Shown: positions 1 to 25,651 of the stretch, piece by piece
Layout: every line of letters starts with the position of its first letter
Numbering within the stretch: position 1 is the stretch's first letter
Source of the DNA: Acidobacteriota bacterium
Lineage (GTDB): Bacteria; Acidobacteriota; Vicinamibacteria; Vicinamibacterales; UBA2999
Direction of reading: 5' to 3'
NCBI GenBank assembly: GCA_021731095.1
Contig: JAKFYA010000236.1
Span: forward strand, 1-36,512
Length of the DNA: 36,512 nt
Position numbers and translations under genes: made by a program
The notes under the pieces: model-generated
What the model saw: only the letters and a program-made list of their open reading frames with translations
What the model was told of the DNA's origin: nothing
Databases searched by the model: none

Positions 1-2
1 GG

Positions 3-1010
3 GAGGCCGAGAGCAACCGCCAGGTCTACGAGTCACTCCTGCAGCGCGAGAAGGAACTCCGCGTCGTCAGTAACAGCCGTGCCAACAACGTTCGGCTCCT
101 CGACCGGGCGCAGGTTCCTGGTGGGCCGTTCACGCCTGACATTCCCCGCGCGTGGATGATGGCGATGCTGTTCGGTCTCGGCCTCGGCGCTGCGGCCGCA
201 TTCGCCATCGACTATCTGGACGATACGGTCAAGACACCGGAAGACGTGACCTGGCGACTGAAGCTGGGGTTCCTTGGCCTCGTTCCCAAGGTACGGGGTG
301 ACAGACACCCGTTGTTGTCAGGCCCGGTGCCCCACGACTTCGGCGAATCTTTCAGAGCACTGCGCACGGCCCTCGTGATGAGCAGTCCTGGCCGCGGCAC
401 GCGAGTCATTGCCGTCACCAGCACGCAGCCGCTCGAGGGCAAGACCACGACGGCCGCCAACCTGGCCCTGGCGCTGGCGATCGGCGGTTCCCGGGTGCTG
501 CTGATCGATGCTGACATGCGCCGGCCAAGCCTGCACAAGGCCCTGCGCATGCCCAACGACAAGGGCCTGTCGCACCTCCTGACCGGCCAGGCGAAGATGC
601 GCGAGGTGGTCCACCGCTCCTCGGACCCGAACCTGCTGGTCATCACCGCGGGCGCCACCCCGCCCAATCCGTCGGAGCTGCTCGCCTCGGACGGCATGCG
701 CGGGTTCATCCAGCAGTTGTCGGTTGGTCCCTTCGACTGGGTGATCATCGACACGCCACCGGTGCTGGCCGTCACGGATTCGGTGATCCTGGCACCACTG
801 GTCAACAGCATGATCTACGTCATCGGCTCCGAGATGACACGCTGGAGACTCGCCGAGCGTGCACTGGCCACGCTTCAGGGTGGCAACCCCAAGTCGATCA
901 ATGCGGTCCTGAACCGGGTGGACTTCGATCGCAACCGCTATTACTACACCCGGTACTACGGCCAGAACTTCAAGAGCTACTACGCTGAGAGCAAGTCGGC
1001 GGCAAGCTAG
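3..1010 (+). CDS. wzc: Polysaccharide co-polymerase / BY-kinase (Wzc/GumC-CapB type), 5'-truncated by the window edge
   Basis: Frame is open from nt 3 (EAESNRQVYESLLQREKEL...) through a TM helix. Walker A STQPLEGKTT, A' LLIDADMRRP, Walker B VIIDTPP, C-terminal Tyr cluster RYYYTRYYGQNFKSYY. Confidence 0.93.
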   Translation, partial: EAESNRQVYESLLQREKELRVVSNSRANNVRLLDRAQVPGGPFTPDIPRAWMMAMLFGLGLGAAAAFAIDYLDDTVKTPEDVTWRLKLGFLGLVPKVRGDRHPLLSGPVPHDFGESFRALRTALVMSSPGRGTRVIAVTSTQPLEGKTTTAANLALALAIGGSRVLLIDADMRRPSLHKALRMPNDKGLSHLLTGQAKMREVVHRSSDPNLLVITAGATPPNPSELLASDGMRGFIQQLSVGPFDWVIIDTPPVLAVTDSVILAPLVNSMIYVIGSEMTRWRLAERALATLQGGNPKSINAVLNRVDFDRNRYYYTRYYGQNFKSYYAESKSAAS

Positions 1011-1050
1011 TTCGCGCAGCCTGACCCTCAGGGCGTCCCTGGCCGCCGGC

Positions 1051-2394
1051 GTGCCGATTCTGGCACTGGCCGCGCTGGGTGGTGCGTACTCCTCCTCGGT
1101 GCTCCCCCTCCTGGCGGCGGCCGCTGTCCTCTTCTTCGCAGGCGGCGGTGCCATCGCTTCCACCCGGGAGACCCGCCTCCTCGACGTCGCCCTCGTGCTG
1201 CTGGTTGTGGCCATGGGCCTGCAGATCCTTCCCCTCCCCTGGTCGTTCATCTCGTCGCTTTCGCCTCGCACGTTCGAGGTCATGGCCTCGCTGACGATGC
1301 TTGATCCGTCAGCCCCGGGTACGCTGAGCATCCGACCCGCCGTCAGTCGCGAGACCCTGATCTCGGCACTCTCTGTGGTGCTGGTGTTCTGGGGAGCGCG
1401 TGGGGTCTTTGACAACGGTGGCCTGCGGCCGGCGGTCAGGCTGCTGTCCTGGGCCGGCCTGGTCGCCGCGCTGGTCGGTCTGGCCCAGCGCGCCACCTCG
1501 CCCATGTTGCTGCTCTGGACCTGGAAGCCGCTGGACCCTGGCGGCAGACCATTCGGCCCATTCGTCAACAGGAATCACTTCGCCTTCTGGTTGCTGCTGG
1601 CGGGAGCTGTGGCGGCGGGCGCCGCCATTTCCCACATCCACGCGCATGGCCTGCTGCGTCGGCGCGCGCTGCGCGACCGGTTCGTGGACCTGCTCGCCGA
1701 CGGTACGGGCGTGATGCTCCTGGGGTCGGCCGCGCTCATGTGGCTGACACTGATTGCCTCAACCTCCAGGGGCGCCATTCTCGGCATGGCCGTGACCTGC
1801 CTGATTGCGCTGGTCATGGCGGGCCGGCGCATCCATTCACGCGCGGCCTTCCGGACCATGATCGTCCTGGTCGTGGCCCTGCTGTCCTGGGGGGTCTGGG
1901 CCAACATTCAGGCGCTGGCCAGCCGGCTGGATCTGAACAGTGGAGACGTCCCGCGCGTTGCCGTCTGGACAGACACCCTGCCGGTCATCTCGGCATTCGC
2001 AGTGACAGGAACTGGCGCCGGCACCTTCGCCGACGCGATGGTCCGCTTCCAGCAACACGAACGTCGCGTGCTGTTCAGCGAGGCTCAGAGCGAGTATCTG
2101 CAGTTGATGGCAGAAGGCGGGCTGCTGCTGGCAGTTCCGGTGCTGGTCGCCCTGCTGGCCTGGTTGCGGCTGTCTCTGATGCGCCTGAAAGCCAGCAGTC
2201 CCGGCTCGACCTGGATCAGACTGGGCGCGCTGGCAGGGCTGTCTGGAGCCGCCGTGCAGTGCCTCTGGGATTCGGCGCTGCGCATGCCGGCCAACGCGAT
2301 GCTGGTGGCCCTGCTCGCGGCCATCGCCGTCCACCAGCGCACGGATGGCGCCGGTTCAGCTGAGGGAAACGGGCGCGGCCCCGAACTCCACTGA
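1051..2394 (+). CDS. O-antigen ligase (Wzy_C/WaaL-like) family membrane protein
   Basis: Many hydrophobic helices; motifs GPFVNRNHFA, STSRGAILG, R..VW, GTGAGTF, AQSEYLQLMAEGG. Exact start uncertain. Confidence 0.85.
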   Translation: MPILALAALGGAYSSSVLPLLAAAAVLFFAGGGAIASTRETRLLDVALVLLVVAMGLQILPLPWSFISSLSPRTFEVMASLTMLDPSAPGTLSIRPAVSRETLISALSVVLVFWGARGVFDNGGLRPAVRLLSWAGLVAALVGLAQRATSPMLLLWTWKPLDPGGRPFGPFVNRNHFAFWLLLAGAVAAGAAISHIHAHGLLRRRALRDRFVDLLADGTGVMLLGSAALMWLTLIASTSRGAILGMAVTCLIALVMAGRRIHSRAAFRTMIVLVVALLSWGVWANIQALASRLDLNSGDVPRVAVWTDTLPVISAFAVTGTGAGTFADAMVRFQQHERRVLFSEAQSEYLQLMAEGGLLLAVPVLVALLAWLRLSLMRLKASSPGSTWIRLGALAGLSGAAVQCLWDSALRMPANAMLVALLAAIAVHQRTDGAGSAEGNGRGPELH

Positions 2395-3816
2395 GGCACA
2401 GGCCTGATAGAAGTCTGCCGGGATGCCGCGCGCCGGGCAGAACCGGTCCAGGAACCACGTCACCCGCTCGGCCAGCGCCGCTCCGGCTGGCCATGTCGGC
2501 ACCTGCTCCAGCCACGCGTCAAACACCTCTGACGGCCGTACGCCCTTCTCGCGACAGAGCATCCGGAAGGTCTTGCGATCGCCGATCTCCCGGAGGGCCG
2601 CTTCCAGTCTGAACCCATAGGCCACCTCATCTGGCGACATGGACAGATGGGACTCCACGAAGTAGGGCGGCTCGTGACTGAAACGCAGTCCCATCGCCTC
2701 CGCCTTGCGCCAGAGCTCGGTGCCTGGCAGGACCATCAGGGGAAACACGGCCAGTTCTGGCGGGTCCAGCGTCACGGCAAAGTCGAGCGAGCGGTGGAAC
2801 GAGGCGACGGTCTCTCCTGGAAGTCCATAGATCAGCTGGAGTTCGAAGGCGAGGCCATGCGCCTTCAGGAAGCCGATGCCATCGAGAAACTTCTGCATCT
2901 TCAGGCGGCGTTCGACCGTCGCCAGCACGTCCGCGTCCGTCGTCTGCAGGCCGACTTCCAGAAACGACACGTTGGCCTCGCGCATCAGGGCGGCAAGTTC
3001 GTCATCGATGAACTCGGCCCACACCTCCGCATGCACGGCAATGCGGCGGGGGTTGTGCGCGGCAATGAGCCGGCAAATCGCCTTCGCCCGGTCGGCGTAG
3101 AGATTGAACACCGGGTCCATGAGGTACAGCTCGTCGATATCGCGTTGCAGCCAGAACAGGATCTCGCGCTCCACGCGCGCCAGATCGAACCGCCGGTTCC
3201 GGACCGACAGGTCCTTGTTGTAGAAGCAGAAGTTGCAGCGGAACACGCATCCGCGTTGCGTCTCGATGCACACCACGCGACCAGGCCGGTCAGCATAGGC
3301 GTCGGTATGCGGGGACGGCAGCTCGTTGATGTCCCGCAGGAGTGGGGCCTCAGCATTCTCGATGATGCGGTCGGCCTGGCGATACGCGATGCCAGCCACC
3401 TCGTCGAGTGTGCGTCCGTCCCGCGCGCAGGCCACGACCTCCGCGAACGGCAGCTCGCCCTCACTGCACACCACCACGTCGACGAACGGGTTCGCGGTGA
3501 GCACGGCGGCCGCCACGGGTCCCACCTCAGGCCCGCCAAGGACCAGCAGCACATCGGGCCGAGCCGCCCGGATCAATCTGGCCGCGGCCATCAAGGTCCG
3601 CACATTCCAGACATAGCAGGACAGGCCCACCACGGCCGGCCCGGTAGACAGGATGCGGGCAGCGATGACCTCAGGTGCCGCCTCCTGGTCGAACTCCGCC
3701 AGGTCAATCTCACTGAGGGCATGCCCCGCTCGCTCCACGAGATAGGCCCTGAGGTACAGCAGCGCCAGCGGTATGAAGGACGGGTTCTTGTGAACGGTCG
3801 CCAGGCAGATCTTCAC
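2356..3816 (-). CDS. Cobalamin (B12)-binding radical SAM enzyme, candidate class B C-methyltransferase (486 aa)
   Basis: N-terminal B12-binding domain (PLALLYL, VVGLSCYVWN, LGGPEV, EGE), CxxxCxxC in TQRGCVFRCNFC, and IYGLPGET. GTG start at 3816 overlaps the upstream TGA (GTGA), so the ORF-track start at 3939 is probably too long. Confidence 0.9.
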   Translation of the reverse strand: MKICLATVHKNPSFIPLALLYLRAYLVERAGHALSEIDLAEFDQEAAPEVIAARILSTGPAVVGLSCYVWNVRTLMAAARLIRAARPDVLLVLGGPEVGPVAAAVLTANPFVDVVVCSEGELPFAEVVACARDGRTLDEVAGIAYRQADRIIENAEAPLLRDINELPSPHTDAYADRPGRVVCIETQRGCVFRCNFCFYNKDLSVRNRRFDLARVEREILFWLQRDIDELYLMDPVFNLYADRAKAICRLIAAHNPRRIAVHAEVWAEFIDDELAALMREANVSFLEVGLQTTDADVLATVERRLKMQKFLDGIGFLKAHGLAFELQLIYGLPGETVASFHRSLDFAVTLDPPELAVFPLMVLPGTELWRKAEAMGLRFSHEPPYFVESHLSMSPDEVAYGFRLEAALREIGDRKTFRMLCREKGVRPSEVFDAWLEQVPTWPAGAALAERVTWFLDRFCPARGIPADFYQACASVEFGAAPVSLS

Positions 3817-4796
3817 AGGCCGTTTCCCTCGAGACCGATCCCGTGCGCGGACGGCTCGGCTCCCCAGAAGGTGGACTGGTCCGTGGCCGCATGGCGAAGG
3901 CCACCCTGGGCATCCTCGATGCTGACCCGCCACCGCCAATGGATGCTGTCAAACCCGGTCATCTGCAGGCGGACGACATCCCCTGTCCCGACCGGGACAG
4001 CCGCAGGTAGCGGAAAGAAACCCTGCCGGTACTGCGTGCTGTTGTCAGACGGGCTGTTGCCGATGACGATGCCGTCTTCAAGGGTCGCCGAGAACCAGAT
4101 AGCCACCCCGTGCAACGAGCCGGCCCGTTCCATCGCCCACCGCACCTCCGCGTCGAATCCGTACCGGGCAAGCGCGTCGAGCCTGAATGTGGCCACCGCC
4201 ACAGGGCCGGCGAGCGACTCCGCCGGTGCCAACCAGACGGGATACCAGTTGTGGGTAGCCATGCCGCGGAAGCAGGACATGTCAACGCCTTCTCGCGGCG
4301 CATCCCAGCAGGTCACCGCGTCCGCATGCAGGCGCGCGGACTCGACCGGCGCTGCGTGGAGAACCACCAGGTCCGGCATGACCCGCCCGCCCGGGTTGAG
4401 AAAGCGCGTCACGGCGTCGCTGACGCACCGGAGGCCGTCCTTCTGAAGTCCGCAACAGTCGTACGTGTCCGTGACGATAAGGTCCACAGGCTCTGGTAGT
4501 GTGACCTGATCGGACGCCCCCTGGACCAGCACGACACGGTCTGCCACACCGTTCGCCTCGGCCAGCCGACGCACGAGGCCTGCCATGGGATGCGCCTCGA
4601 CCGCATAGACACGCCTGGCGCCTGCGCGCGCCGCCAGGACCGACAACACGCCACTCCCCGCCCCAAGGTCGAGCACGACCATGCCAGGCACGACAGCACT
4701 GGCCAGGGCTGTCGCGTAGCGCGTCAGTCGCTCACCGGTGCCGGCGAGGAGAAACCGCTGCTGCTGGAGAAACTCCGCCGACTCGGGGAATTGCAT
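3813..4796 (-). CDS. SAM-dependent methyltransferase with protein arginine methyltransferase (PRMT)-like architecture
   Basis: Motif I VVLDLGAGSGVLS, RVYAVEA, EPVDLIVTD, RFLNPGG, then a PRMT beta-barrel-like region LHGVAIWFSATL...SPSDNSTQYRQ at the THW-loop position. Confidence 0.85.
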   Translation of the reverse strand: MQFPESAEFLQQQRFLLAGTGERLTRYATALASAVVPGMVVLDLGAGSGVLSVLAARAGARRVYAVEAHPMAGLVRRLAEANGVADRVVLVQGASDQVTLPEPVDLIVTDTYDCCGLQKDGLRCVSDAVTRFLNPGGRVMPDLVVLHAAPVESARLHADAVTCWDAPREGVDMSCFRGMATHNWYPVWLAPAESLAGPVAVATFRLDALARYGFDAEVRWAMERAGSLHGVAIWFSATLEDGIVIGNSPSDNSTQYRQGFFPLPAAVPVGTGDVVRLQMTGFDSIHWRWRVSIEDAQGGLRHAATDQSTFWGAEPSAHGIGLEGNGL

Positions 4797-4808
4797 GGTG
4801 GCGAGGTC

Positions 4809-5435
4809 CTACAGGCCGTCGCGAAGGATGTCGAGAAAGGCGGGCTCGGACCGGAACCACCCTACGAAGGCCAGTTTCTCGACGGCGCCCGCGATGGGCG
4901 TGACCTGATGCTCAAGGGACTCATCGATACGGAACAGGAGTGCATCTCCTTCCCCGGTGTTGGCCACGTCATCAAGCACGGATCCAGACATCGCACTTCG
5001 CAGGCGGAACACGCCGCCCTCGTACGGGTGGTCTCCCAGATTGATGCTCATGCCGATCAAGCGGTGGTCCACGGCATCGTTGTGCCAGGACACATGGTGC
5101 GCGCCGCCCGGCAACATCCGGTACACCCGTCCCGTGAAGCAGCCAATGGCGCCGCAACCGGTGAGGTTCTGGATGCCGGCATAGACGACAGGGTCGTTCA
5201 CGAGAAAATGCAGGAGACTCACGGTGCCGTCGGCCTCGAGACACTGCTCGGTTCCGAGCCCCTCATGGTCCCGCTCGAGGAAGGTCCCCTGGTCCAGTCG
5301 CTGACGTATCGTCAGGCACAAGTCTGGCGACAGCACACCAGGTACCACCGCGCAGTTCGTGCGGGCAAACTGGTCGCGAACGCTGGACAGCTCATCAACA
5401 GGCCAGAACAGCCGAGACGTCAACGGCCCGGTCAT
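4809..5435 (-). CDS. Fe(II)/2-oxoglutarate oxygenase, prolyl-4-hydroxylase-like family, copy 2 (208 aa)
   Basis: WHND (HxD), INL...YEGG.F, GDALLF, EHQV (distal His), KLAFVGWF. ATG at 5435 is 2 nt after the upstream stop. Confidence 0.85.
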   Translation of the reverse strand: MTGPLTSRLFWPVDELSSVRDQFARTNCAVVPGVLSPDLCLTIRQRLDQGTFLERDHEGLGTEQCLEADGTVSLLHFLVNDPVVYAGIQNLTGCGAIGCFTGRVYRMLPGGAHHVSWHNDAVDHRLIGMSINLGDHPYEGGVFRLRSAMSGSVLDDVANTGEGDALLFRIDESLEHQVTPIAGAVEKLAFVGWFRSEPAFLDILRDGL

Positions 5436-5437
5436 TG

Positions 5438-6109
5438 TCAAACCCCCGCCCTGGCGCGAGCCAGGCCGACTTCCTCGGACCCAAACTCTTCGAGCAGTGA
5501 GACGAGAGACAGATCCGATACGAACCACCCTGCGAAGGTGGTACGCGGGACAGTGCCTGTGACCTCCGTGGCCCGATGCTCAAGGCCAGAGGCAATGCGG
5601 AACAGGACCGCATCTCCAAGGCCGGTATTCGCGATATCACACAGCAATCGCTGTCGCGGATCATCCAACAACTGGAAGTGCCCGCCTTCGTAGATGTCGA
5701 CGCTGAGGTTGAGGCTCACGCCAATGCGGCGCCCCTGCACGTTGTCCGAGTGCCACGAATCAAAGTGTCCGGCTCCCGGGACAAACCTGAACACACGCCC
5801 ACGAAAGCCTGACAGCGGCTCACAGCCGGTCAGTTCCTCGACGAGACGCAGCAACGCCGGGTCGTTGAAGGCGAAGTGCAGCAGGCTCAGGGCCGGATTC
5901 GGCATCATGGCGTGATCCGCCGCGATGTCGTGATGCTTCTCGTCAAAGAACGCCGACTCCGTCACATGCCTGAGCGCAAACGCCAACAGGTCGTCAGACA
6001 GCACCTGGCGAAGGTGCACGTAACGGTGTTCCGAAAACTGTGCTGACAGCGTGCGTCGTTCAGAGTCCGGCAACGGCGCAGCCAGGCCGTGTGGTGTCAG
6101 TTGCAGCAT
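5438..6109 (-). CDS. Fe(II)/2-oxoglutarate oxygenase, prolyl-4-hydroxylase-like family, copy 1 (223 aa)
   Basis: WHSD, LNL...YEGGHF, GDAVLF, EHRA, RTTFAGWF. ATG at 6109 overlaps the end of the kinase gene; a TTG at 6118 is an alternative start. Confidence 0.87.
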   Translation of the reverse strand: MLQLTPHGLAAPLPDSERRTLSAQFSEHRYVHLRQVLSDDLLAFALRHVTESAFFDEKHHDIAADHAMMPNPALSLLHFAFNDPALLRLVEELTGCEPLSGFRGRVFRFVPGAGHFDSWHSDNVQGRRIGVSLNLSVDIYEGGHFQLLDDPRQRLLCDIANTGLGDAVLFRIASGLEHRATEVTGTVPRTTFAGWFVSDLSLVSLLEEFGSEEVGLARARAGV

Positions 6110-7116
6110 GGGGGGCAAGTAGACAGGTCGGACAGGACTGCGTCACGCACCGTCGCAAGGAGGGGAAGCCGTCGAGGATAGGACAACCGCCTGACCGGTA
6201 TGCTCCCCGCCAGGTTCGTGACAAAGGCAAACTGCCGGGACAGACGTTCTGCGGTGGCCACGCGCCCATTGAAGGTATTGGCAATCAGCGCCAGGCACGC
6301 CTGGCGCAATGGCAAGTGGCGGATCCGAACCTGCGCATGGGCTTGCGCACGAGCCTCTGAACGACGCGCTTCGCCGATGACATAAATGGCCCGAAGCGGT
6401 ACAGCCGTCAGCGCCTGCTCACCATCCACCATGGGCATGGCCAGCTTGGGGGCCAGCAAGGGCATCGTGATGCCGGCCGGACGCCCCTGTCGCAATCGGG
6501 TCGCCATGCGGCGCATGAGCTTGATGCGTGGTGGCCCCAGGTGGGCCATCAGGGCTGTACCCTGGCGGGTGACGACCAGCTGGTCATCAGTGACCAGGTG
6601 ATACCCCGCCTGCACGAACGCAGCAGCCAGGCTGGATTTGCCGCGCCCTGATGGACCGAGGAACGCCACGCCCTGCCCGTTGATGGACACGACGCTTGCA
6701 TGAAGCGGTTCGAGACCCTGCTGGACCAAGGCGTAAGAGAGTGCGGGTCCGAGCATAAGGGCTTCGAACAGTTCCAGACCTGTCCGTCCCCCACGACGCC
6801 CAATGATGCGCGCGCCATCCCCGGTGACCAGGAACTCGATGGAGCGCCCCCAACGGAGATAGGACCCGCCATCATCAAGGGCGGCCCGTTCGAACCAGGA
6901 GGAGTGACGGGTGCGCGGCAGGAGGGCCGCAGAGGCAAACAGGCCATCATGGACAGATGTCGTCCCATCTTCAAGGGAGACGTCCCAGGACGGGGCGTAT
7001 GCGGATGACACGGGAGCAAACGGCAGGCGCCACGCGCTCGACAGGCGAACTGAAAAGAGATCGTATAGGTAGCGAGGCCCCTGGCCTGTGCCTCCCACCG
7101 CTGCGACCGGGGACAT
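6097..7116 (-). CDS. HPr kinase-like P-loop kinase, putative lasso-peptide kinase
   Basis: LHASVV...AFLGPSGRGKSSLAA...LVTDD, the His / Walker A / DD signature of HPrK-like kinases. ATG overlaps the precursor stop (TGATG). Confidence 0.88.
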   Translation of the reverse strand: MSPVAAVGGTGQGPRYLYDLFSVRLSSAWRLPFAPVSSAYAPSWDVSLEDGTTSVHDGLFASAALLPRTRHSSWFERAALDDGGSYLRWGRSIEFLVTGDGARIIGRRGGRTGLELFEALMLGPALSYALVQQGLEPLHASVVSINGQGVAFLGPSGRGKSSLAAAFVQAGYHLVTDDQLVVTRQGTALMAHLGPPRIKLMRRMATRLRQGRPAGITMPLLAPKLAMPMVDGEQALTAVPLRAIYVIGEARRSEARAQAHAQVRIRHLPLRQACLALIANTFNGRVATAERLSRQFAFVTNLAGSIPVRRLSYPRRLPLLATVRDAVLSDLSTCPPCCN

Positions 7117-7280
7117 CAGGACTTGGTGGTCTTCCGGATCCCGTCGCTCTTCTTGCCGCCCTTTGCCAGCGCCAGATGGCGCAGGTCTCCGTAGACCGTC
7201 AGCTTCGGCGTCCTGTAGGCCTTGCGCGACGTCTCGCCCTGGTCTCTCGATTCTGAATCAGACGATGACACGTTCTTCAT
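7116..7280 (-). CDS. Lasso peptide precursor, 54 aa: MKNVSSSDSESRDQGETSRKAYRTPKLTVYGDLRHLALAKGGKKSDGIRKTTKS
   Basis: Manually translated (below the 60-aa ORF cutoff). Leader motif YRTPKLTVYGDL fits YxxPxLxxxG. ATG overlaps the cyclase stop (ATGA), its TGA overlaps the kinase ATG, and AGGAG lies 8 nt upstream. It fills the gap exactly. Confidence 0.92.
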   Translation of the reverse strand: MKNVSSSDSESRDQGETSRKAYRTPKLTVYGDLRHLALAKGGKKSDGIRKTTKS

Positions 7281-9217
7281 GACCTGCTCTCCTGCCTGCT
7301 AGGTGAACCGCGCCCGACTGTCGACATCGGACCAAAGAACTGCTGCAACCAGACTTCCAGCGCCAGCACATCCGTGAGTCCCCGGCTCGCGTCGAACGTG
7401 TCGTTCGCCAGTGCCGCATGGGCCTCACGCAGGGCCCGGTCCGCTCCGGCCCGGACATAGCCTCGCTGCACCGCTTCGCCCGTCGCCGCCAGCCGCGAGA
7501 CGATCCGATTATAGTCGCGGGACACACCGTCATTCACCAGCGACGTGAAGCTGACTTTGGTGCGCCTGGACGCAATCGCCTCTGGCAGCACACCACGCAG
7601 ACTTTCCCGGAGCAGCGCCTTGGGCACCCCGCCAGCGCACAGCACGTCACCGGGAATAGCCATCAGGAAGGCGACCAGGTCCCGGTCCAGGAACGGGAAC
7701 GCGTGCTCGAGTCCTTCGATAGCCCCGGCCTTGTTGTGCCACTCCAGGCAGAACACGGCGTACCGGGACCTGGCCTCCCGGTAGAGACTGGCGCCGTGGG
7801 CCGTGAATCCGGCCGGCACCCGGACAGGCGGGCGCTCGGCGCTCCGGCGAAACGCGTCGGTGTACCAGCCTCGGACATCGCGCCGTGCCGCCAGACGCTG
7901 ACGCGCGCGGCGAAGGCGGCGCAACACCGCCATCGGCAGGTGTCGCACGACCAGCCCTCTCAGGAGTCGCGTGGTGAAGTAGGAGGCATCCGTGACGCTC
8001 AGCCACTCACCAAAGCCCCGCGCCTGCCGCCAGGCCTCGCGCCAGGCGCCCTGTTCGACCAGGTCCAGCAGATAACCATCATCTGCCAGGAACTGGTCGC
8101 CCCAGTCGCCCGACAGCAACACCCGGACGCCCTTGGACCTCACAAACCGGTTGAACGCCTGGTCGCTGGTCCACTCCATATCGAGGGATGGCACCTCGAC
8201 GTGCCAGACCCCCCGGTCCACCTCATCGACCATGCCCAACTGCGGATGCGGGAAGCGATGGGACTGGAGGCCGGTAGCGACCTCGACCGCTCTGAGAAAC
8301 GCTTCCTCGTCAGCCTTCGACCCTGGTGGCGGCGTATAGGTGACGCCAACCGGGGACTGGGCATGGCCGCGCCCCTGGTGGCGCAGGTGCTCCGCCACGC
8401 AGAAGATCGAGGACGAGTCCACGCCACCACTGAGCGACACGCCGACCGGCGCTGCGCTGCGCAGGCGACGCGACACGGCCTGCTCAAAATGTTCGCGAAA
8501 GGCCTCGGCGTACGCGCCGGGCGACGCAAGCCTGATGCGTGCGCCGGGATCGAAGTCCCAATACCGGCGTGTCCGTGCCTCGCGGCCGCGCACCACGACC
8601 TGATGGCCTGGCAACACGCTGAAGACCTGGTCGAACACTGTCAGGCCCTGCGTGTCCTCGGACATCAGGGCATTGAAGTAGAAGTCTGCGATGCATGCGT
8701 CGCACGGTGCGACGTGCGCCTCCGGGTGTGCCAGCAGGGCTTTCACTTCGGTGCCGAACAGTAGGTGCGTCGGCCCCTGCTGGTAGTAGAGGGGTCGTAC
8801 TCCCATGGCATCGCGAGCAAGGCAGAGCATGCGTGTCGCGGTCTGGTAGGCCGCAAGGGCGAAGTCGCCCAGGAGGTAGTCGGGAGCCGCCTCGCCCCAT
8901 CGCGCGTAGGCCGACAGCGCCAGGTTCTCGTCTGGCGTGTCCGCGCGAAGATGGTGGTCGCCCAGCCTCGCGAGCAGGTCGTCACGGTTGTCGAGTCGGC
9001 CATCAAAGGCGATGACCCAGCGATCGTCCCGGCAGACCTGGGCCAACGCTGGCGCCTCAGCGTCCCCGGGAGCCCAGTCGCGTACGGCACACCCGAACGA
9101 CGCATCCCGGAAATGCCGTTCGACGCCACGGTGAGCCATGGCCGCAGACATCGCCCGCAGTTCCGGTGCCCCGGCCAGACGTTCGTCGAAATTGAGGACG
9201 CCGCAGATGCCGCTCAC
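7277..9217 (-). CDS. Lasso cyclase (C protein), asparagine synthetase-like macrolactam synthetase (646 aa)
   Basis: Starts GTG-SGICG, with Ser in place of the catalytic Cys of AsnB MCGI. Also DGRLDNR, GDFA, ARDAMGVRPLYY, ATP-binding SLSGGVDSS, SGDWGDQ, FPFLDRDLV, KALLR. The ORF-track start at 9373 would overlap the B1 gene. Confidence 0.9.
   Translation of the reverse strand: MSGICGVLNFDERLAGAPELRAMSAAMAHRGVERHFRDASFGCAVRDWAPGDAEAPALAQVCRDDRWVIAFDGRLDNRDDLLARLGDHHLRADTPDENLALSAYARWGEAAPDYLLGDFALAAYQTATRMLCLARDAMGVRPLYYQQGPTHLLFGTEVKALLAHPEAHVAPCDACIADFYFNALMSEDTQGLTVFDQVFSVLPGHQVVVRGREARTRRYWDFDPGARIRLASPGAYAEAFREHFEQAVSRRLRSAAPVGVSLSGGVDSSSIFCVAEHLRHQGRGHAQSPVGVTYTPPPGSKADEEAFLRAVEVATGLQSHRFPHPQLGMVDEVDRGVWHVEVPSLDMEWTSDQAFNRFVRSKGVRVLLSGDWGDQFLADDGYLLDLVEQGAWREAWRQARGFGEWLSVTDASYFTTRLLRGLVVRHLPMAVLRRLRRARQRLAARRDVRGWYTDAFRRSAERPPVRVPAGFTAHGASLYREARSRYAVFCLEWHNKAGAIEGLEHAFPFLDRDLVAFLMAIPGDVLCAGGVPKALLRESLRGVLPEAIASRRTKVSFTSLVNDGVSRDYNRIVSRLAATGEAVQRGYVRAGADRALREAHAALANDTFDASRGLTDVLALEVWLQQFFGPMSTVGRGSPSRQESRS
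7289..7293 (-). promoter_or_regulatory. Shine-Dalgarno site (AGGAG) for the precursor gene
   Basis: Minus strand reads gcAGGAGagcaggtcATG, with an 8-nt spacer. Confidence 0.7.
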
Positions 9218-9233
9218 AGGTAGACTGATCCTA
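9218..9233. promoter_or_regulatory. Possible bidirectional, leaderless-type promoter between cyclase and B1
   Basis: Only 15 nt separate the divergent start codons. TAGACT (9221-9226, +) lies 6 nt before ATG 9233; TAGGAT (9233-9228, -) lies 10 nt before GTG 9217. Both fit TAnnnT. Confidence 0.35.
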
Positions 9234-9532
9234 TGACGAAAGTAACCCTGTCCGATGCGGTCAGGCCGGGGGCCAACGTCCTGTTCCGCGAGCTTGAAGG
9301 CGAAGGCATTCTCTTGAGCCTCGAGAGCGGAAAGTACTTCGGCCTCGACGCGGTCGGCACGCGGATCTGGCAACTGCTCGGCGCCGGTCCGTCACTCACC
9401 GGCGTCTGCGAGACGCTCGCCGCGGAATTCGATGTGGAGCGCGCCACCATCGAGGCCGACCTGCTGGCCCTGGTCGCGGAACTCTCGTCCCACGGACTCG
9501 TGCTGGTGGCGGAGCACGCCCCGTCGGCATGA
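9233..9532 (+). CDS. PqqD-family RiPP recognition element (lasso B1 protein)
   Basis: 99 aa; RELEGEGILLSLESGKYFGLDAVGTRIWQLL...LAAEFDVE...ADLLALVAELSSHGLV is a typical PqqD/RRE pattern. Confidence 0.93.
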   Translation: MTKVTLSDAVRPGANVLFRELEGEGILLSLESGKYFGLDAVGTRIWQLLGAGPSLTGVCETLAAEFDVERATIEADLLALVAELSSHGLVLVAEHAPSA

Positions 9533-9993
9533 TGGCCACCGGCGAGGCGTGGCTCGAACGCGTCGCCTGGGTTCGACAGGAGTGGCCGCTGATCGGCGAG
9601 GCGATGCTGGCCGCACTGGTGGTGGAGACGGGCCTCCGCGCCACCTCGCATCCCCGCCTGTGGCACTGGGCCGGGGTTGTCCCTCGCGACATGGCCTCCC
9701 GGCCAGACCCGGCGCTGCTCTGGGCCATCCTCCGCGCCAGCTACTGGGCATGCCTGCTGCTGCCGGTGCGTGGAACCTGCCTCCGTGAAAGCCTGGTGGC
9801 CGCGCGCCTGCTGTCGCGCCGCGGTCACCCCGTCACCGTGCAGGTGGGCGTCCGCAAGGCCGGTCCCCGTCTGGACTCCCATGCCTGGCTCGAAGATGGC
9901 GATGGACGCGCGCTCACCGATCCCCTTGCGGGGTACGCCCCTCTGATCGCCGACACGCATGACCGAACAGCTCTGCCGGATCCTGCGCGGTAA
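9529..9993 (+). CDS. Lasso leader peptidase (B2, transglutaminase-like cysteine protease)
   Basis: TCLRESL (catalytic Cys), VQVGV, SHAWLE (His). ATGA overlap with the B1 stop. Confidence 0.92.
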   Translation: MMATGEAWLERVAWVRQEWPLIGEAMLAALVVETGLRATSHPRLWHWAGVVPRDMASRPDPALLWAILRASYWACLLLPVRGTCLRESLVAARLLSRRGHPVTVQVGVRKAGPRLDSHAWLEDGDGRALTDPLAGYAPLIADTHDRTALPDPAR

Positions 9994-11110
9994 CCCGGTC
10001 GACTGGCCACCAGACGCCGCCGGTGCCGAGACCTTGCAGCGGGAGGCCTATGAGCATGGCGTCCATACCCTGGTCGCGGCACGGCTGTCGAATCCGTCGT
10101 ATGCCGACTGCCCGATCTGGGTCCGGCAACCGTTCGCGCGTGAACGCGTGGACGAGGCCGCTGAAGAGCAACTGGTACGCCAGTCGATCCGGTCAGTCAT
10201 CGCCGCGTGCGCCAGTGCGGGCCTGCACCCGCTCATCTTCAAGGGTGCCGCCCTCGCCTTCACCCACTATGACGACCCGAGCGACCGTCCCTATGTGGAT
10301 GTCGACCTTCTCGTCCGACCGGGCGAGGCGCGCCTGGCGGCACAGGTGCTCGAATCGCTGGGCTACCAGGCCGCCGTCAGCGTGACCGGCGCGCTGCTGG
10401 CGGATGCCCCGGATGCGACCACCATCGATCGGTATGCGCCCAGCTCGCAGGTCCCGTTCACGAAGCGTGATGCCCGGGGAACGCCGCTCGAGATCGACCT
10501 GCACTGGCGCCCCACAATTCCCCAGGTGTTTGCCCAGGTGTTCGACCTGGATGCGTTGCACGCCGACTCGGTCGCCGTGCCGGCCCTGGGTCCGCAGGCG
10601 CGCGCGTTTGGACCCGTTCATGCGCTGGTGCTGGCCTGCCTGCATCGCCTCGCCCACCACCACGGCAGCGACCGGCTGATCTGGCTGTACGACCTGCACC
10701 TGCTGGGGTCACGTCTCACGACGGGTCAGGTCACAGCGCTACTCGAACTGGCGCGTGCGCATCAGGTGGCCGGGGTCTGCCTGGATGGACTGACCCTGGC
10801 CAGGCAGGCCTTCCAGAGCCCGTTCCCGGACGCACTCATCGAAGGGCTCCGCGAGGCGGCCGCTGCCAGTGACGAGCCGTCCGCCATGTATCTGCATCAT
10901 CAGGTTCGCCAGATGGACGTGCTGCGCGCAGACCTCGCGGCCCAGCCCAACCTCTCCGCGCGCATCCGCCTGTTGCGCGAACACCTCTTTCCACCGCCTG
11001 CCTATCTGCGCCAGCGTTACGGCGCACGCGCGTCCCTCTGGCTGCCCTGGCTGTATGTCCGGCGTGCGGTGTCCGGTGCACGCCGGTGGATGACCTCGCC
11101 ACGCCCCTGA
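9959..11110 (+). CDS. Nucleotidyltransferase family protein (NTP_transf_5-like)
   Basis: FKGAALA..Y.....R...DVDLLV, EIDLHW, RLIWLYDL. Confidence 0.88.
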   Translation: MTEQLCRILRGNPVDWPPDAAGAETLQREAYEHGVHTLVAARLSNPSYADCPIWVRQPFARERVDEAAEEQLVRQSIRSVIAACASAGLHPLIFKGAALAFTHYDDPSDRPYVDVDLLVRPGEARLAAQVLESLGYQAAVSVTGALLADAPDATTIDRYAPSSQVPFTKRDARGTPLEIDLHWRPTIPQVFAQVFDLDALHADSVAVPALGPQARAFGPVHALVLACLHRLAHHHGSDRLIWLYDLHLLGSRLTTGQVTALLELARAHQVAGVCLDGLTLARQAFQSPFPDALIEGLREAAAASDEPSAMYLHHQVRQMDVLRADLAAQPNLSARIRLLREHLFPPPAYLRQRYGARASLWLPWLYVRRAVSGARRWMTSPRP

Positions 11111-11117
11111 CAACACA

Positions 11118-11166
11118 AAGGGGATGCCGATGGCATCCCCTTCATGACGGCGGCTCTTCAGCCGCC
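11118..11166. terminator. Two tandem hairpins between convergent genes, probable (bidirectional) terminator
   Basis: AAGGGGATGCC-gat-GGCATCCCCTT (11118-11142, perfect 11-bp stem, followed on the - strand by a T-rich tract) and GGCGGCT-cttc-AGCCGCC (11149-11166). Confidence 0.7.
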
Positions 11167-11184
11167 ACATCCCCCGGACCCGCG

Positions 11185-12345
11185 TCAGCTCAGCATGCGC
11201 CTGAAGAGCAGGGTTCGCGCCGGCTGGTGGCGGAACAACGCCAGAATCAGATCCCGATGGCGATTGAAGCGCGCCGTCTGTCGCACGATCGGCATGATGC
11301 CGTTGGTATTCGCCAGCCTGAAGAGGGCATCCATTTCGCCGTCACTGAGCTTCTGCGCCAGCATGCGCAGCGCCAGCTGCGTCCGGAACTCGGGAATCAG
11401 TTCCTTCCGCCAGCCCGCTTCATACACAGACAGGGCGGACGCATCCAGCCGGTCCCGGTGCAGCGCGTCGCGCAACACCTCGGCGGCCATCGCACCCGTC
11501 GTCATGCTGTAGTAGATGCCGCCCCCTGTGGTTGGCTTGACCAGCCCTGCGGCGTCCCCGATGGCGACCACACGATCGGCATAGGTCCGGCGGATCGCCC
11601 CGAGCGGCAACAGTCTGCGGCGCGGCGATGCCGCGATCGTGCCTGCCACGCCCCAGGACGGGCCGATTCTCTCCATCAACCGGCGAAACGGGCCGGCGGC
11701 GTCGCCGTCGCACATCAGGCCGATGCGTACGTGCGGTCCGTCGGGTCGCACCGTCGGCACAGCCCAGGCAAACCCCTGCGGGGCGACATCCAGACCGAAG
11801 TAGACCTCGACCTCGCCACTGCGACCCGCGGGCACTTCCATCTGGGCCGATGAGAGATACACCGACGGCAGACCCATGCCGAGCTGGCGCTGGAAGCTGT
11901 AATTGACCCCGCAGGCGAGCACGACCGCACGTCCCACGACCGGAGCCTGCCCCTCGATCCCGACCTCCACGGAGTGCTCGCCGTTCACCAGGCCCGTGGC
12001 GCGGGCTCCCCGGATGAGGGCGGCACCTGCGGCAACAGCTCTGGTGGCCAGCATCCCGTCGAACCGGACGCGGTCCACCACCACGGCTTCCAGGCGGTCG
12101 GGAGTCCACGAGAGCTCAAGCCCTCCGGGCGAATGAAATCGGACCGCCGGCAAGGGATTGAGCACGGCATCGCGCGGAAGCCCGAGCTCCTCGAACACCT
12201 CATCTCCCAGGATGCCGGTGCAATGCGGAGGCTGGCCTATCTCGGCGTGTTCCTCGAGGACAGCCACATCAAAGCCGTCACGCGCCAGCTTCGCGGCTGC
12301 GTGCAGGCCTCCCGGGCCGCCACCGATGATCACGACATCATGCAT
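11185..12345 (-). CDS. Geranylgeranyl reductase-family FAD-dependent oxidoreductase
   Basis: DVVIIGGGPGG, HCTG, VDRVRFD, GFAWAVP, IGDAAGLVKPTTGGGIYY. Confidence 0.88.
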   Translation of the reverse strand: MHDVVIIGGGPGGLHAAAKLARDGFDVAVLEEHAEIGQPPHCTGILGDEVFEELGLPRDAVLNPLPAVRFHSPGGLELSWTPDRLEAVVVDRVRFDGMLATRAVAAGAALIRGARATGLVNGEHSVEVGIEGQAPVVGRAVVLACGVNYSFQRQLGMGLPSVYLSSAQMEVPAGRSGEVEVYFGLDVAPQGFAWAVPTVRPDGPHVRIGLMCDGDAAGPFRRLMERIGPSWGVAGTIAASPRRRLLPLGAIRRTYADRVVAIGDAAGLVKPTTGGGIYYSMTTGAMAAEVLRDALHRDRLDASALSVYEAGWRKELIPEFRTQLALRMLAQKLSDGEMDALFRLANTNGIMPIVRQTARFNRHRDLILALFRHQPARTLLFRRMLS

Positions 12346-12377
12346 ACGGTGCGGCCATTATATGTGTCCCGTGCCAG

Positions 12378-12977
12378 TCACACCTTCGGCCCCGGGTGTT
12401 CCCATCGGCCACGGGCACTGATCCAGAACGACAGCGCAATGAGACGGACATCCAGCCAGAAGCCGGCACGCCGGCAGTAGAGCGCGTCGAAACGGAACTT
12501 CTGCGGTCGCGGCAGGTCACGCCGCGCATAGACCTGGGCCAACCCGGTCAGCCCCGGACGCACGGCGTGTCGCGCCACGTAGCCGGGAATCTCCTCCAGA
12601 CGCACGAAGCGTCCATCGCCACGTGCCTCGATTTCGCCCACCGCCAGGGGGCGAGGGCCGACGAAGCTCATGTCGCCAATGAAGATGTTCCAGAGCTGAG
12701 GCAGCTCATCAAGCGCCATGGCGCGCAACAGGCGACCCACACGGGTGATGCGCTGGTCATTGGCCACCACCTGCCTGGCAGGTTCGACTGACGCCGCCAC
12801 GAACATCGACCGGAACTTGTAGGCGGTGAATGGCCGTCCGCCACGACCGACTCGCGGCTGGGTGAAGAACACCGGGCCCCCATCCTCCAGCCGGATCGCC
12901 AGGGCGACCAGCAGCCACACCGGTGCGGACAGAACGAGCCCGAGGCCAGACAGACACAGGTCGAACAGGCGTTTCAT
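12378..12977 (-). CDS. Priming sugar transferase (polyprenyl-phosphate phosphoglycosyl transferase, Bac_transf)
   Basis: KRLFDL, GPVFFTQPRVG, KFRSM, LDELPQLWNI..GDMSFVGPRP, RPGLTGLAQV. Confidence 0.93.
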   Translation of the reverse strand: MKRLFDLCLSGLGLVLSAPVWLLVALAIRLEDGGPVFFTQPRVGRGGRPFTAYKFRSMFVAASVEPARQVVANDQRITRVGRLLRAMALDELPQLWNIFIGDMSFVGPRPLAVGEIEARGDGRFVRLEEIPGYVARHAVRPGLTGLAQVYARRDLPRPQKFRFDALYCRRAGFWLDVRLIALSFWISARGRWEHPGPKV

Positions 12978-17044: not shown

Positions 17045-18198
17045 CAGGCGCCCGCCGTGACCGGGCGCGCCGCGAGCACCGCGCGGTACTCCTGCTCGAA
17101 GCGTGCGGCAATAGCGTCCCAGCCGTAGGATGCCCGCGCCAACTCTCGACCGCGACGTCCCATGACCTGGGCCGCCGCCGGATCGGCCAGCAGTGACCCC
17201 AGGGCGGTCGCCAGCGCGTCGGCGGTCTGATCCACGACCAGGCCGGCCTGTCGTGGCGCCAGTTCCACCCAGCCACAGCTTCGCGTCACGACCACGGGCA
17301 CGGCCTCCGCCAGCGCTTCAAGCACCGTCAGACCGAAACTCTCTGAGTCTGAACAGAGGGCCAGTGCTGACGCCTGCGAGAGCAACCGGGTCCTGGTGGC
17401 CGGGTCGACGGCTCCGGTCCAGGTAATGCCCGCTGCCGCCGCTCCGGCCCTGGCGATCAGGCCTGCCTGCAGGCCCGCTTCATCGGGGCCTGCCACCACC
17501 AGGCGAGCCGCAGGCCACTGCGCGCGGATCCGCACAAAGGCATCGACCAGCAGGTCGAGCCGCTTGATGGGATGAATGCGGCCCACAAACAGAATGACGG
17601 GTGGACCATCCGGTCGTGGCGGCGCCACGTCCTCGGCGATGTCCACACCGTTGGGAATCAGCACCACGCGCGACGACGGGCTCCAGAGCTGAAGGCTCTC
17701 TGCCTCTCGTCTGGAGGTGGCATGCAGGAGCGCGGCTCCCTCAATGGTCTGTCGTTCAAGCAGCGAATAGGCCGCCCGCTTGCGCCAGGCGTGGTGGTCG
17801 AGCGCGGCCGACTGCAGCATGCCCCGCGGTGACAGCACATAGGGCACACCGGCCCGCCGGGCTTCGCGGGCCGCCGCCCACACGACACGGTTCCACAGGC
17901 CATGGATGTGCAGGACATCCGTGTCCGGCAGCGCTGTACGCAGCACGGGTGCCAGCGCACGCGAGCCGATGATGCGCAGCGGCCAGCTCCGGGGGCAGTA
18001 GGTGACCGGCACCCCTTCGAATGCTCCGGCCGTCGTCACGGCCTCCGGCAAGGCGCCGTCACCATTGGCGTCGGTGGAGTACACACGGACGTCTGTACCC
18101 AGGCGACGGAGCGCCCGACACAGACCATGAATGCTCGCCGGCGGTCCGCCATAGACGTAGGCCGGCGCGTAGTAGGCGGACACATGCGCGACCCTCAC
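17044..18198 (-). CDS. GT4 glycosyltransferase
   Basis: YGGP, HIHGLWN, SPRGML, FVGRIHPIKRL, ESFGLTVLEALA. Confidence 0.9.
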   Translation of the reverse strand: MRVAHVSAYYAPAYVYGGPPASIHGLCRALRRLGTDVRVYSTDANGDGALPEAVTTAGAFEGVPVTYCPRSWPLRIIGSRALAPVLRTALPDTDVLHIHGLWNRVVWAAAREARRAGVPYVLSPRGMLQSAALDHHAWRKRAAYSLLERQTIEGAALLHATSRREAESLQLWSPSSRVVLIPNGVDIAEDVAPPRPDGPPVILFVGRIHPIKRLDLLVDAFVRIRAQWPAARLVVAGPDEAGLQAGLIARAGAAAAGITWTGAVDPATRTRLLSQASALALCSDSESFGLTVLEALAEAVPVVVTRSCGWVELAPRQAGLVVDQTADALATALGSLLADPAAAQVMGRRGRELARASYGWDAIAARFEQEYRAVLAARPVTAGA

Positions 18199-24406: not shown

Positions 24407-25651
24407 TCACATCACCCGTTCGGTCGCCGCCACAAGCGCCTCGCGCTCCTGTGGATGCTCCCAGTGCCAGCGGCGACGTGCCGCCTCCCAGGAGGCTTCG
24501 CGTGCCCGTGTCAGGGCGGCCCGGTCTGCCACCCAGGCGGACAGCCCATCGGCCAGCCGGTCCACCGCTCCCTCAGGAAATCGCACGCAGGCGTCGCCGA
24601 GGCTGTCGGCCAGCGTCCGCTGTCCCTCCGTCTCTGTCAGCACCAGTGCCAACCCCGACAGTGGATAGGTGAGGGCCTTGTTGGACAGCGCCAGGCCACG
24701 GTTCCGGGGCATGCGGGCCTCTGTCGCCAGGCCAGCGTCGCAGTGCCGCCCGTCCTCGGCCATGGCATCGGGATCAGAGGGCGCATGGACGCAGAGCCGC
24801 AATGCTGGCGCCACGCGCGCGGCGTGACGGCCCAGCTGCTCCAGGTATCCGGGCACGCCGGAGCCCCGCACGTGCAGTTCGCACAGTCGCCCCTGTTGCA
24901 GCCGGCCCGTCGCGGTCGCCACGTCCTCGAGGCCTCGCCCCGGGCTGATGGTCTGGCTGAACCAGTAGAGCTTCAGCGGTCCGCTGGTCGGTTCCGGGGG
25001 ACGCCCCCAGGCCAGAGGAAACACGTTGTGAATCGGCAGCACCGGCAGATGGAACTCCGCGCTGACCGCCTCGGCAATCGCTGCGCTGCCTCCGGTCAGA
25101 AACGCCGCGCGAGGCGCCACCTCCGCCATGACGAGGCGGGCAAGCGCGTCGTGGCGCGCGCCGGCCGCGCCAGCTTCGCCCTGGGCACAGTGCAGGTCCT
25201 CGAAGTCGATGCCGCACGGAGTGCCGCTCTGTGCCGAGGCCTCGGCGATAGCCGAGAGCGCCCCGGTGGTGCCACCGTAGATCACGTCTGTCGGCTCTCG
25301 GAGAATGGCCTCGACCAGCGCGCCATGTACCCGGCTGAACGCCTGTACGACAGCCCAGTGTGGGCGGACGGGAGACGGCAGCGACAGCAACCGTTCGGCC
25401 ACGCGGTGACGAAGTGCCGTGACCAGCCACCGTGCGGGAGCCGCCTCACGACGAACCTCCACCGGATCCCACCGCCACCCGTGCCGTGCCTGGAGCGCGA
25501 CGTCGTAGGCCCCGGCCCACGCGGCGTTCGGCGTGTTGACGACGCGGACATCCCAGCCAGCCCAGGCAAACGCGTCGGCCGCTTTCACGGCACGCGGACA
25601 GGTGGCCAGGCTGCCGGCTGCCACGACAGTGACCCGTCGAGGACGGGTCAC
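24407..25651 (-). CDS. Putative GT-B glycosyltransferase
   Basis: CPRAVKAA, DFEDLH, WFSQTISPGRGLE, LSNK..TY..SGL. GTG 25651 overlaps the upstream stop (GTGA). Confidence 0.7.
   Translation of the reverse strand: MTRPRRVTVVAAGSLATCPRAVKAADAFAWAGWDVRVVNTPNAAWAGAYDVALQARHGWRWDPVEVRREAAPARWLVTALRHRVAERLLSLPSPVRPHWAVVQAFSRVHGALVEAILREPTDVIYGGTTGALSAIAEASAQSGTPCGIDFEDLHCAQGEAGAAGARHDALARLVMAEVAPRAAFLTGGSAAIAEAVSAEFHLPVLPIHNVFPLAWGRPPEPTSGPLKLYWFSQTISPGRGLEDVATATGRLQQGRLCELHVRGSGVPGYLEQLGRHAARVAPALRLCVHAPSDPDAMAEDGRHCDAGLATEARMPRNRGLALSNKALTYPLSGLALVLTETEGQRTLADSLGDACVRFPEGAVDRLADGLSAWVADRAALTRAREASWEAARRRWHWEHPQEREALVAATERVM

Follow-up and report, generated by a model that had tools for sequence, protein, structure and literature searches.

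Positions 2356 to 11110 of a 36,512-nucleotide stretch of DNA from an Acidobacteriota bacterium of the order Vicinamibacterales (contig JAKFYA010000236.1 of assembly GCA_021731095.1; the whole stretch is called the window here) hold a genuine, intact lasso peptide gene cluster of the split-B type. The interpretation that we favor, with moderate confidence, is a cluster of the phosphorylated type, in which a kinase and a nucleotidyltransferase are joined by a methyltransferase, an oxygenase pair, and a cobalamin-dependent radical S-adenosylmethionine (SAM) enzyme as further tailoring genes. The cluster is not unique. Because its methyltransferase regularly partners kinase-type lasso clusters and its oxygenase family is linked to lasso genes, it belongs to a large uncharacterized kinase-type lasso family found mostly in Acidobacteriota. 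It stands out by uniting all these tailoring genes in one coupled operon, yet it is one member of that large family.

Core genes, operon structure, and precursor

An earlier note on this DNA had proposed a complete lasso core set, an operon with six particular gene junctions, a single 16-residue core peptide, and six candidate tailoring genes in tightly coupled operons, and each of these proposals was borne out. The ten open reading frames (ORFs) are present (Table 1), and the core genes have the expected Pfam and NCBIfam matches. The cyclase C matches Pfam Asn_synthase (2.4e-46) and GATase_7 as well as NCBIfam lass_lactam_cya (2.5e-94; 317 bits, under the curated cut-off of 525), and it is 39 to 40% identical to the cyclases of three other loci (L046, L062, and L173; L and G numbers denote the loci and genomes used for comparison). 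B1, the predicted RiPP recognition element (RRE), matches Pfam PqqD (8.1e-19; 68.2 bits against a cut-off of 23.4) and, below the cut-off, NCBIfam lasso_PqqD_Bac (4.3e-15). The leader peptidase B2 matches Pfam Transglut_core3 (6.8e-16) and NCBIfam lasso_biosyn_B2 (62.2 bits, over the cut-off of 33).

Against a window G+C content of about 67%, codon-position G+C marks a run of minus-strand genes (2356 to about 9217) and, diverging from it, three plus-strand genes at 9233-11110. Direct reading of the sequence confirmed all six junctions exactly: C and the precursor gene A meet in ATGA, A and the kinase gene K in TGATG, K and the first oxygenase gene (Ox1) overlap by 13 nt, Ox1 and the second (Ox2) are separated by 2 nt, Ox2 and the methyltransferase gene (MT) by 12 nt, and MT and the radical SAM gene (rSAM) meet in GTGA. 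All ten frames are open, this tight translational coupling is retained, and the catalytic motifs are intact, including the kinase P-loop, the HxD...H triad of the oxygenases, the CxxxCxxC motif of rSAM, and the SAM motif of MT. As these gene families are found together again in dozens of further loci, the cluster is not a chance set of ORFs.

The 54 codons between C and K encode the precursor MKNVSSSDSESRDQGETSRKAYRTPKLTVYGDLRHLALAKGGKKSDGIRKTTKS, preceded by a GGAG-type ribosome-binding site and with a start that overlaps the C stop. Residues 1 to 38 form the leader, with a YxxPxLxxYG motif, and residues 39 to 54 form the core. The alignment of the window precursor with 21 related ones (22 in all) agrees with this division, predicts cleavage after Leu38, and places Ala37 in the column of the Thr at leader position -2. 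By the same alignment the ring acid is Asp46, which is core position 8, and the ring is predicted to join core Ala1 to Asp8; a short precursor with a YxxPxL leader and Asp or Glu at core positions 7 to 9 is expected of a split-B lasso cluster. The core contains five Lys, one Arg, and zero Pro and ends in Ser; as an unmodified lasso its calculated monoisotopic mass is 1642.948 Da ([M+3H]3+ 548.657). A motif search of 80 related loci recovered one or two small ORFs per locus with the leader K-K-P-Y-x-x-P-x-L-x-x-Y-G-(D/N)-I-x-x-L-T, and the cores behind these leaders have an acidic residue (Asp or Glu) at position 8-9 and, zero to three residues before the end, a [KR]-T motif. The precursors of L017, L114, L117, and L172 end in K-(T/S/A)-C-L and make up a separate C-terminal subtype with Cys.

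Table 1. Genes of the lasso cluster and of its conserved flanks in the window
Feature	Positions	Strand	Basis and remarks
Lasso cyclase C (Asn-synthetase-like)	7277-9217 (GTG start, 646 aa); longest ORF from TTG 9373	-	Pfam; start uncertain
Precursor A, 54 aa	7116-7280	-	Translation and leader motif
HPrK-like peptide kinase K	6097-7116	-	Pfam Hpr_kinase_C
Fe(II)/2-oxoglutarate (2OG) oxygenase Ox1	5438-6109 (ATG 6109; Pfam-assigned span 5438-6118)	-	PF13640
Fe(II)/2OG oxygenase Ox2, Ox1 paralogue	4809-5435 (Pfam-assigned span 4809-5528)	-	PF13640
PRMT-fold SAM methyltransferase MT	3813-4796	-	Pfam PRMT_C and PrmA
Cobalamin-dependent (class B) radical SAM enzyme rSAM	2356-3816 (Pfam-assigned span 2356-3939)	-	B12-binding and Radical_SAM
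B1, PqqD-like RRE	9233-9532	+	Pfam PqqD
B2 leader peptidase	9529-9993	+	Pfam Transglut_core3
Nucleotidyltransferase NT, PF14907	9959-11110	+	Pfam NTP_transf_5
Wzy_C (O-antigen-ligase-like) membrane protein, conserved flank	1051-2394	+	Pfam Wzy_C 4.3e-15
FAD oxidoreductase, conserved flank	11185-12345	-	Pfam
Bac_transf sugar transferase, conserved flank	12378-12977	-	Pfam

Candidate tailoring enzymes

The kinase-nucleotidyltransferase core is known lasso chemistry. K matches Pfam Hpr_kinase_C (5.4e-09; 36.3 bits against a cut-off of 33.3), and its GxxGxGKS P-loop (G154, G159, K160, and S161) and H139 are invariant among 16 homologues. NT matches NTP_transf_5 (PF14907; 1.4e-34), the family to which we take PsmN, the nucleotidyltransferase of the pseudomycoidin cluster, to belong.

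The methyltransferase has the fold of the protein arginine methyltransferases (PRMTs). It matches Pfam PRMT_C (7.4e-15) and PrmA, and a sequence search of the PDB returned PRMT6 (4.2e-29), CARM1 (1.7e-26), and also PRMT2. SAM motif I is present, with D43, G45, G47, and G49 invariant, and so is the PRMT C-terminal barrel. The two catalytic loops of PRMTs are not retained: alignment with PRMT6 puts Asp110 and Lys119 (Lys119/Asp120) at the two positions of the double-E loop, where PRMTs have the Glu pair that holds the guanidinium, and the THW loop reads T-Q-Y and varies across the family. Within that family the first double-E position is Asp or Glu in all 24 sequences compared and the second is Glu in only 9. 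Since neither loop is kept, we rejected MT as a true arginine methyltransferase and file it as a PRMT-fold enzyme; the description "PRMT-like" in the earlier note stands for the fold and fails for the catalytic loops. Arginine may not be the substrate, and our guesses for the target are a Lys or Arg beside the conserved Thr or else a phospho-group.

A database search with MT yielded 191 homologues, and a profile built from 24 homologues retrieved 80 genome loci. Most of these are from Acidobacteriota (Vicinamibacterales and Pyrinomonadaceae), with others labelled Nitrospirae, Gemmatimonadetes, Burkholderiales, Cyanobacteria, and more, and the closest are in metagenome-assembled genomes (MAGs) of Vicinamibacterales. 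By tblastn, 70 of the 80 loci contain the kinase, 67 the cyclase, 59 B1, and 7 an oxygenase; hidden Markov models built from the loci found NT in 53 and B2 in 31. The usual gene order is B1-C-A-K-MT. Judged by this gene company, MT is a regular partner of kinase-type lasso clusters, uncharacterized and widespread.

Ox1 and Ox2 are paralogues (37% identity over 195 residues) that both match 2OG-FeII_Oxy_3 (PF13640; 9.4e-08 and 5.2e-08, respectively). H120, D122, and H178 of Ox1 are invariant in 16 homologues, and the triad columns are also kept in Ox2. A PDB sequence search with Ox1 gave no match below E 0.1. When an AlphaFold2 model of Ox1 (pLDDT 89) was searched with Foldseek, the best match was Tpa1 (Tpa1/OGFOD1; E 1.1e-09, TM 0.70), followed by the prolyl 4-hydroxylase (P4H) of P. 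putida and PHD2; all three are prolyl hydroxylases that act on proteins, and the model has the double-stranded beta-helix and HxD...H iron triad of P4H/PHD/Tpa1 enzymes. Proline is not indicated as the target, as the 16-residue core is Pro-free and several oxygenase-linked cores elsewhere are also Pro-free.

The oxygenase family is present in 28 of 301 genomes of the order, and 26 of these 28 are kinase-positive, compared with 128 of the 301 overall. Among the kinase matches listed, an oxygenase lies within 10 kb of the kinase in 13 genomes, and tandem oxygenase pairs occur in nine other genomes of the same set. One Ox1 homologue of 313 aa (P0250) joins PF13640 to a PqqD domain (PF05402), and this oxygenase-RRE fusion speaks directly for a peptide as the substrate, with an RRE presenting it. 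Another homologue (P0242), from an independent assembly where its contig measures 3,024 bp, is 93% identical to Ox1, so a close relative carries the same oxygenase gene. By these distributions the oxygenase pair is an uncharacterized, widespread accessory of the kinase-type lasso family.

The last gene of the operon encodes a protein with the two domains of a class B radical SAM enzyme, B12-binding (PF02310; 2e-16) and Radical_SAM (PF04055; 4.6e-19), and an invariant CxxxCxxC motif (C190, C194, and C197). Its closest PDB sequences are TokK (1.1e-31) and CysS (2.3e-30). It falls under the curated cut-offs of all the named subfamilies compared (KedN5, PhpK, rSAM_ocin_1, and ApyD); the best NCBIfam match, to the KedN5 family (2.1e-49), scored 168 bits against a cut-off of 700. 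The enzyme is a probable C-methyltransferase. Its family has at least 465 homologues at E < 1e-30, the top 120 of them at 55 to 69% identity. One orthologue (G273:C21:2723-4174) has a single in-frame TGA and may be a pseudogene or an assembly error. Complex prediction for rSAM with the precursor gave a score of 0.01, which counts neither for nor against an interaction.

Proposed pathway

The steps proposed here follow characterized lasso systems by analogy, and all modifications are read from homology. B1 would bind the 54-aa precursor through its YxxPxLxxYG leader, and the HPrK-like kinase would phosphorylate a Ser or Thr of the C-terminal K-T-T-K-S stretch while the peptide is linear. The PF14907 enzyme may then add a sugar or nucleotide to the phosphate, as happens in pseudomycoidin. 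B2 would cut off the 38-residue leader, and C would close an isopeptide ring between Ala1 and Asp8 around an 8-residue tail. The two P4H/Tpa1-like oxygenases are predicted to hydroxylate side chains of the Lys-rich core, the PRMT-fold enzyme with its degenerate double-E loop may methylate a cationic or nearby group, and the TokK/CysS-like B12 enzyme would add one or more C-methyl groups to the core.

Evidence against the pathway and alternative explanations

Several observations weigh against this pathway, some concerning the cluster as a whole and others its radical SAM gene. Every modification is a prediction from homology, and the oxygenase fold suggests prolyl hydroxylases, yet the core has no proline. 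The precursor lacks the Thr expected at leader position -2. The starts of C (GTG 9217, minus strand) and B1 (ATG 9233, plus strand) are separated by only 15 nt, where promoter room is not obvious, and Pfam scans of the window found no ATP-binding cassette (ABC) exporter inside the cluster. As for rSAM, tblastn found it in none of the 80 MT loci. The mean column identity of its family, 66%, is expected of a gene with its own function. We surveyed its neighborhoods in 80 metagenome loci and the 301 genomes of the order: no lasso neighbor is visible in 56 of the 80 loci, one is seen in only 4 of the 14 loci that extend 3 kb or more to each side, and no lasso gene lies within about 8 to 10 kb of rSAM in the nine other rSAM-positive reference genomes of the order. 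At genus level the co-occurrence of rSAM and kinase, five of five genera where the base rate is 69 of 120, is not compelling.

Some of these features could be those of a decaying or silent remnant from which a lasso peptide is no longer made: the Ala at -2, the 15-nt spacing, and the missing exporter. A scan of positions 900-12500 also found zero sigma-70-like promoter sites where 0.9 were expected (and five terminator-like sites against 4.3 expected), and the host genome, a MAG, comprises 3.6 Mb in 490 contigs, with a completeness of 81% and a contamination of 5.3%. We consider a remnant very improbable, since the ten open frames, intact catalytic motifs, and tight coupling speak against decay, as does the 93% identical Ox1 in an independent assembly. 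The promoter scan is ill-suited to this phylum, and the 15-nt spacing implies either that both promoters lie inside the opposite gene or that C starts further upstream and overlaps B1. Leaders without Thr at -2 are processed in a characterized system, that of Bradymonas with Ile, and predicted precursors with Ile, Val, or Ala at this position are cited in the same report (PMC10368454; this and the other articles given by PMC number are cited for part of their text). In light of these recorded Ile, Val, and Ala leaders, we regard the Ala as a tolerated variant.

The second group of observations raises the possibility, a serious one although we rate it below membership in the pathway, that the lasso cluster stops at MT and that rSAM is a conserved acidobacterial gene that is merely adjacent here and works separately, acting for instance on a different secreted peptide or protein, a lipid, or a polysaccharide. 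The earlier note had allowed that the oxygenase, methylase, and rSAM genes might turn up without lasso genes, and this was found for rSAM alone (56 of 80 loci and nine of nine other reference genomes); it was not found for MT, with the kinase in 70 of 80 loci, or for the oxygenases, with 26 of 28 genomes kinase-positive. Among the nine genomes, the rSAM orthologues of G012 and G016 (47 to 58% identity) have unrelated neighbors (LysR, a deaminase, and a PLP enzyme), and seven more are without lasso genes at the distance given above. The gene also recurs in other settings. In L099 and L103 (about 1-11500) it comes last in a type I secretion operon, after genes for a 1217-aa FG-GAP repeat protein, DUF4915, OEP, a C39-peptidase ABC transporter, and HlyD, and PAS histidine kinases lie beside it in 14 metagenome loci. 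L106 has a dn2-dn1-rSAM trio with no lasso genes downstream, and the single copy in G000 resembles the family orthologue.

Against a separate function stand the ways in which rSAM is joined to lasso genes. It has a start-stop overlap with MT in the window (GTGA) and with K in L114 and L134 (ATGA), the former within a C-A-MT-K-rSAM operon. Lasso-type neighbors are present in 24 of the 80 metagenome loci, two of them weak, and five different lasso genes (B2, Ox, K, C, or NT, varying by locus) directly adjoin rSAM, in varied orders and in several clades; adjacency to dn1 is limited to one clade. In a quick IQ-TREE maximum-likelihood tree of 70 rows (13 of 83, partial matches, having been dropped), the lasso-adjacent members fall in several clades with 10 label changes, against a mean of 16 for shuffled labels, and none of 500 shuffles was as low. 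All 10 rSAM-positive genomes among the 301 carry kinase-type clusters somewhere. The best homologues of rSAM (69%), MT (56%), and Ox1 (52%) each lie on a contig of 26,063 bp, and their co-location is inferred from equal size alone. We also tried placing rSAM in an exopolysaccharide (EPS) or lipid module with an FAD oxidoreductase and a sugar transferase; because that adjacency is confined to one clade, of nine rows, this module ranks below the lasso link. On balance we lean toward rSAM as part of the lasso pathway, where it would be a rarer recruit than MT or the oxygenases.

Exopolysaccharide setting

Outside the cluster, Pfam identifies the window as an EPS locus. Its genes encode a GNVR/AAA_31 P-loop chain-length kinase, the Wzy_C membrane protein, an initiating transferase of the Bac_transf type, seven or more glycosyltransferases of the GT4 type, and a carbamoyltransferase, together with an ABC-2 transporter pair, a Poly_export/SLBB protein, and a BBP2 porin. 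Three minus-strand ORFs of the EPS locus, at 18195-19736 (513 aa), 24407-25711 (434 aa), and 32833-34182 (449 aa), are without a Pfam match at E 1e-4. The Wzy_C gene converges on rSAM, and the 3' ends of the two overlap by 39 nt (2356-2394).

The lasso cluster occupies a conserved slot of this EPS locus, between the Bac_transf and FAD oxidoreductase pair and the Wzy_C-like gene. The earlier note had missed this setting, and the slot is flanked alike in other families of the order. G016 has the order Bac_transf, FAD oxidoreductase, B1, B2, A, C, MT, K, NT, and a Wzy_C-like gene, and in G029 the same flanks surround B1-B2-K-A-C-NT. Flanks of the Bac_transf, FAD oxidoreductase, and Wzy_C types are also found at L090, L097, L104, L108, L110, and L128, and the Bac_transf and FAD oxidoreductase pair flanks lasso genes in L172 and L173, which have Wzy_C homologues as well. 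Wzy_C genes lie near or beside the PF14907 nucleotidyltransferase gene in L033, L051, L059, L062, L065, L089, L090, L130, L164, and L172. In the MT scan, 8 of 69 lasso loci, from several lineages, have a Wzy_C-like gene, at most about 3.3 kb from NT in all seven that have NT. This arrangement suggests that the cluster is functionally tied to the polysaccharide pathway.

PglL/PilO-type O-oligosaccharyltransferases belong to the Wzy_C family. The peptide could accordingly be a component of the EPS pathway and not a free antimicrobial, with the PglL-like Wzy_C ligase attaching a lipid-linked glycan after the kinase and NT have activated the conserved C-terminal Ser or Thr; this would be why the cluster is kept in a fixed slot. 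We think this unlikely, although less so than a remnant. The EPS nature of the window, the same flanks in G016, G029, L090, L097, and others, the Wzy_C-like genes near NT, and the lack of a dedicated exporter in the cluster all fit it. On the other side, a Wzy_C-like gene is missing from the available DNA of 61 of the 69 lasso loci, the flanks may reflect only a gene order inherited within one order, and no sequence feature links the ligase to the peptide; the match of the Wzy_C protein to NCBIfam PEP_O_lig_1 is far under the cut-off (35.9 against 188 bits). If this explanation were true, the pathway would yield a lasso glycoconjugate that is hydroxylated and carries N- and C-methyl groups, and no molecule of this kind has yet been described.

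Comparison with known systems

The window cluster, which we continue to read as a kinase-type lasso pathway with added tailoring, is most readily compared with the paeninodin type (Paenibacillus dendritiformis; kinases ThcoK and SyanK). The two share split B1 and B2 genes, C, an HPrK-like kinase, and a core that ends in Ser, the residue on which paeninodin-type kinases act in the linear precursor (PMC8498205). Unlike that type, the window adds the PRMT-fold methyltransferase, two oxygenases, and rSAM, has Ala at -2, and lacks an in-cluster ABC transporter; its host is a Gram-negative acidobacterium, and its relatives keep [KR]-T near the C terminus instead of a terminal Ser. In pseudomycoidin (Bacillus pseudomycoides), the kinase PsmK and the nucleotidyltransferase PsmN put hexoses on phospho-Ser (PMC8498205). 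The window has the same two types of enzyme, likened by family, but its NT lies in a divergent B1-B2-NT operon, and neither the additional tailoring set nor the EPS setting has been described for pseudomycoidin. The bsf cluster of Bradymonas sediminis is likewise a Gram-negative lasso cluster with a kinase and a nucleotidyltransferase (BsfK and BsfN) and a non-Thr residue, Ile, at -2; it differs in that BsfK phosphorylates Ser3, that it has an ABC transporter, and that, in the part of the report drawn on here, it has no methyltransferase, oxygenase, or radical SAM gene (PMC10368454).

The added enzymes have counterparts of other kinds. CanE of the canucin pathway, also of the Fe/2OG type, hydroxylates a lasso precursor in its linear form (PMC8498205), and the window oxygenases are likened to it by enzyme type; the window has two paralogues with a Tpa1/P4H/PHD-like fold. 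TokK, CysS, and KedN5 share the B12-binding domain and radical SAM core of rSAM, but they act on small molecules, whereas rSAM is about 150 to 200 residues shorter and its proposed substrate is a peptide. The eukaryotic type I PRMTs (PRMT6, CARM1, and PRMT2) share the Rossmann SAM domain and C-terminal barrel with MT (4e-29 to 2e-26) and differ from it in their conserved double-E and THW loops.

Lasso tailoring reactions known so far include phosphorylation (paeninodin), phosphoglycosylation (pseudomycoidin), C-terminal O-methylation, acetylation, citrullination, epimerization, Asp hydroxylation (CanE), and aspartimide formation (PMC8498205 and PMC9266682), and a review of interlocked peptides from June 2026 extends the list to aromatic cross-links, Trp chlorination and prenylation, glycosylation of Ser, and a second isopeptide bond (PMC13352647). 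The terms "radical SAM" and "rSAM" are absent from the portion of that review that was examined. The earlier note knew of no characterized lasso pathway with a cobalamin radical SAM enzyme or a PRMT-type methylase, and we found none in the literature searched, a search whose scope excluded subscription journals and supplementary cluster lists. Its further suggestion of a new, highly modified class holds in part: the combination is unusual, but MT and the oxygenases are common accessories of a widespread kinase-type family. Metagenome surveys have recorded many divergent, uncharacterized lassopeptide clusters in Acidobacteriota, including Vicinamibacterales (PMC8692599).

Implications

Lasso peptides are prized as scaffolds, and few tailoring reactions are known for them. 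The window brings together three enzyme types for which the literature searched holds no characterized lasso role: a PRMT-fold methyltransferase with an altered active site, a prolyl-hydroxylase-like pair that would act on a Pro-free core, and a B12 radical SAM enzyme. The methyltransferase and oxygenase types are present in dozens to hundreds of uncultured Acidobacteriota and other soil bacteria, and because they are so widespread, one expression study would annotate a large family of clusters. The fixed place of these clusters inside EPS loci also raises the question of what role the peptides have for the bacteria that produce them.

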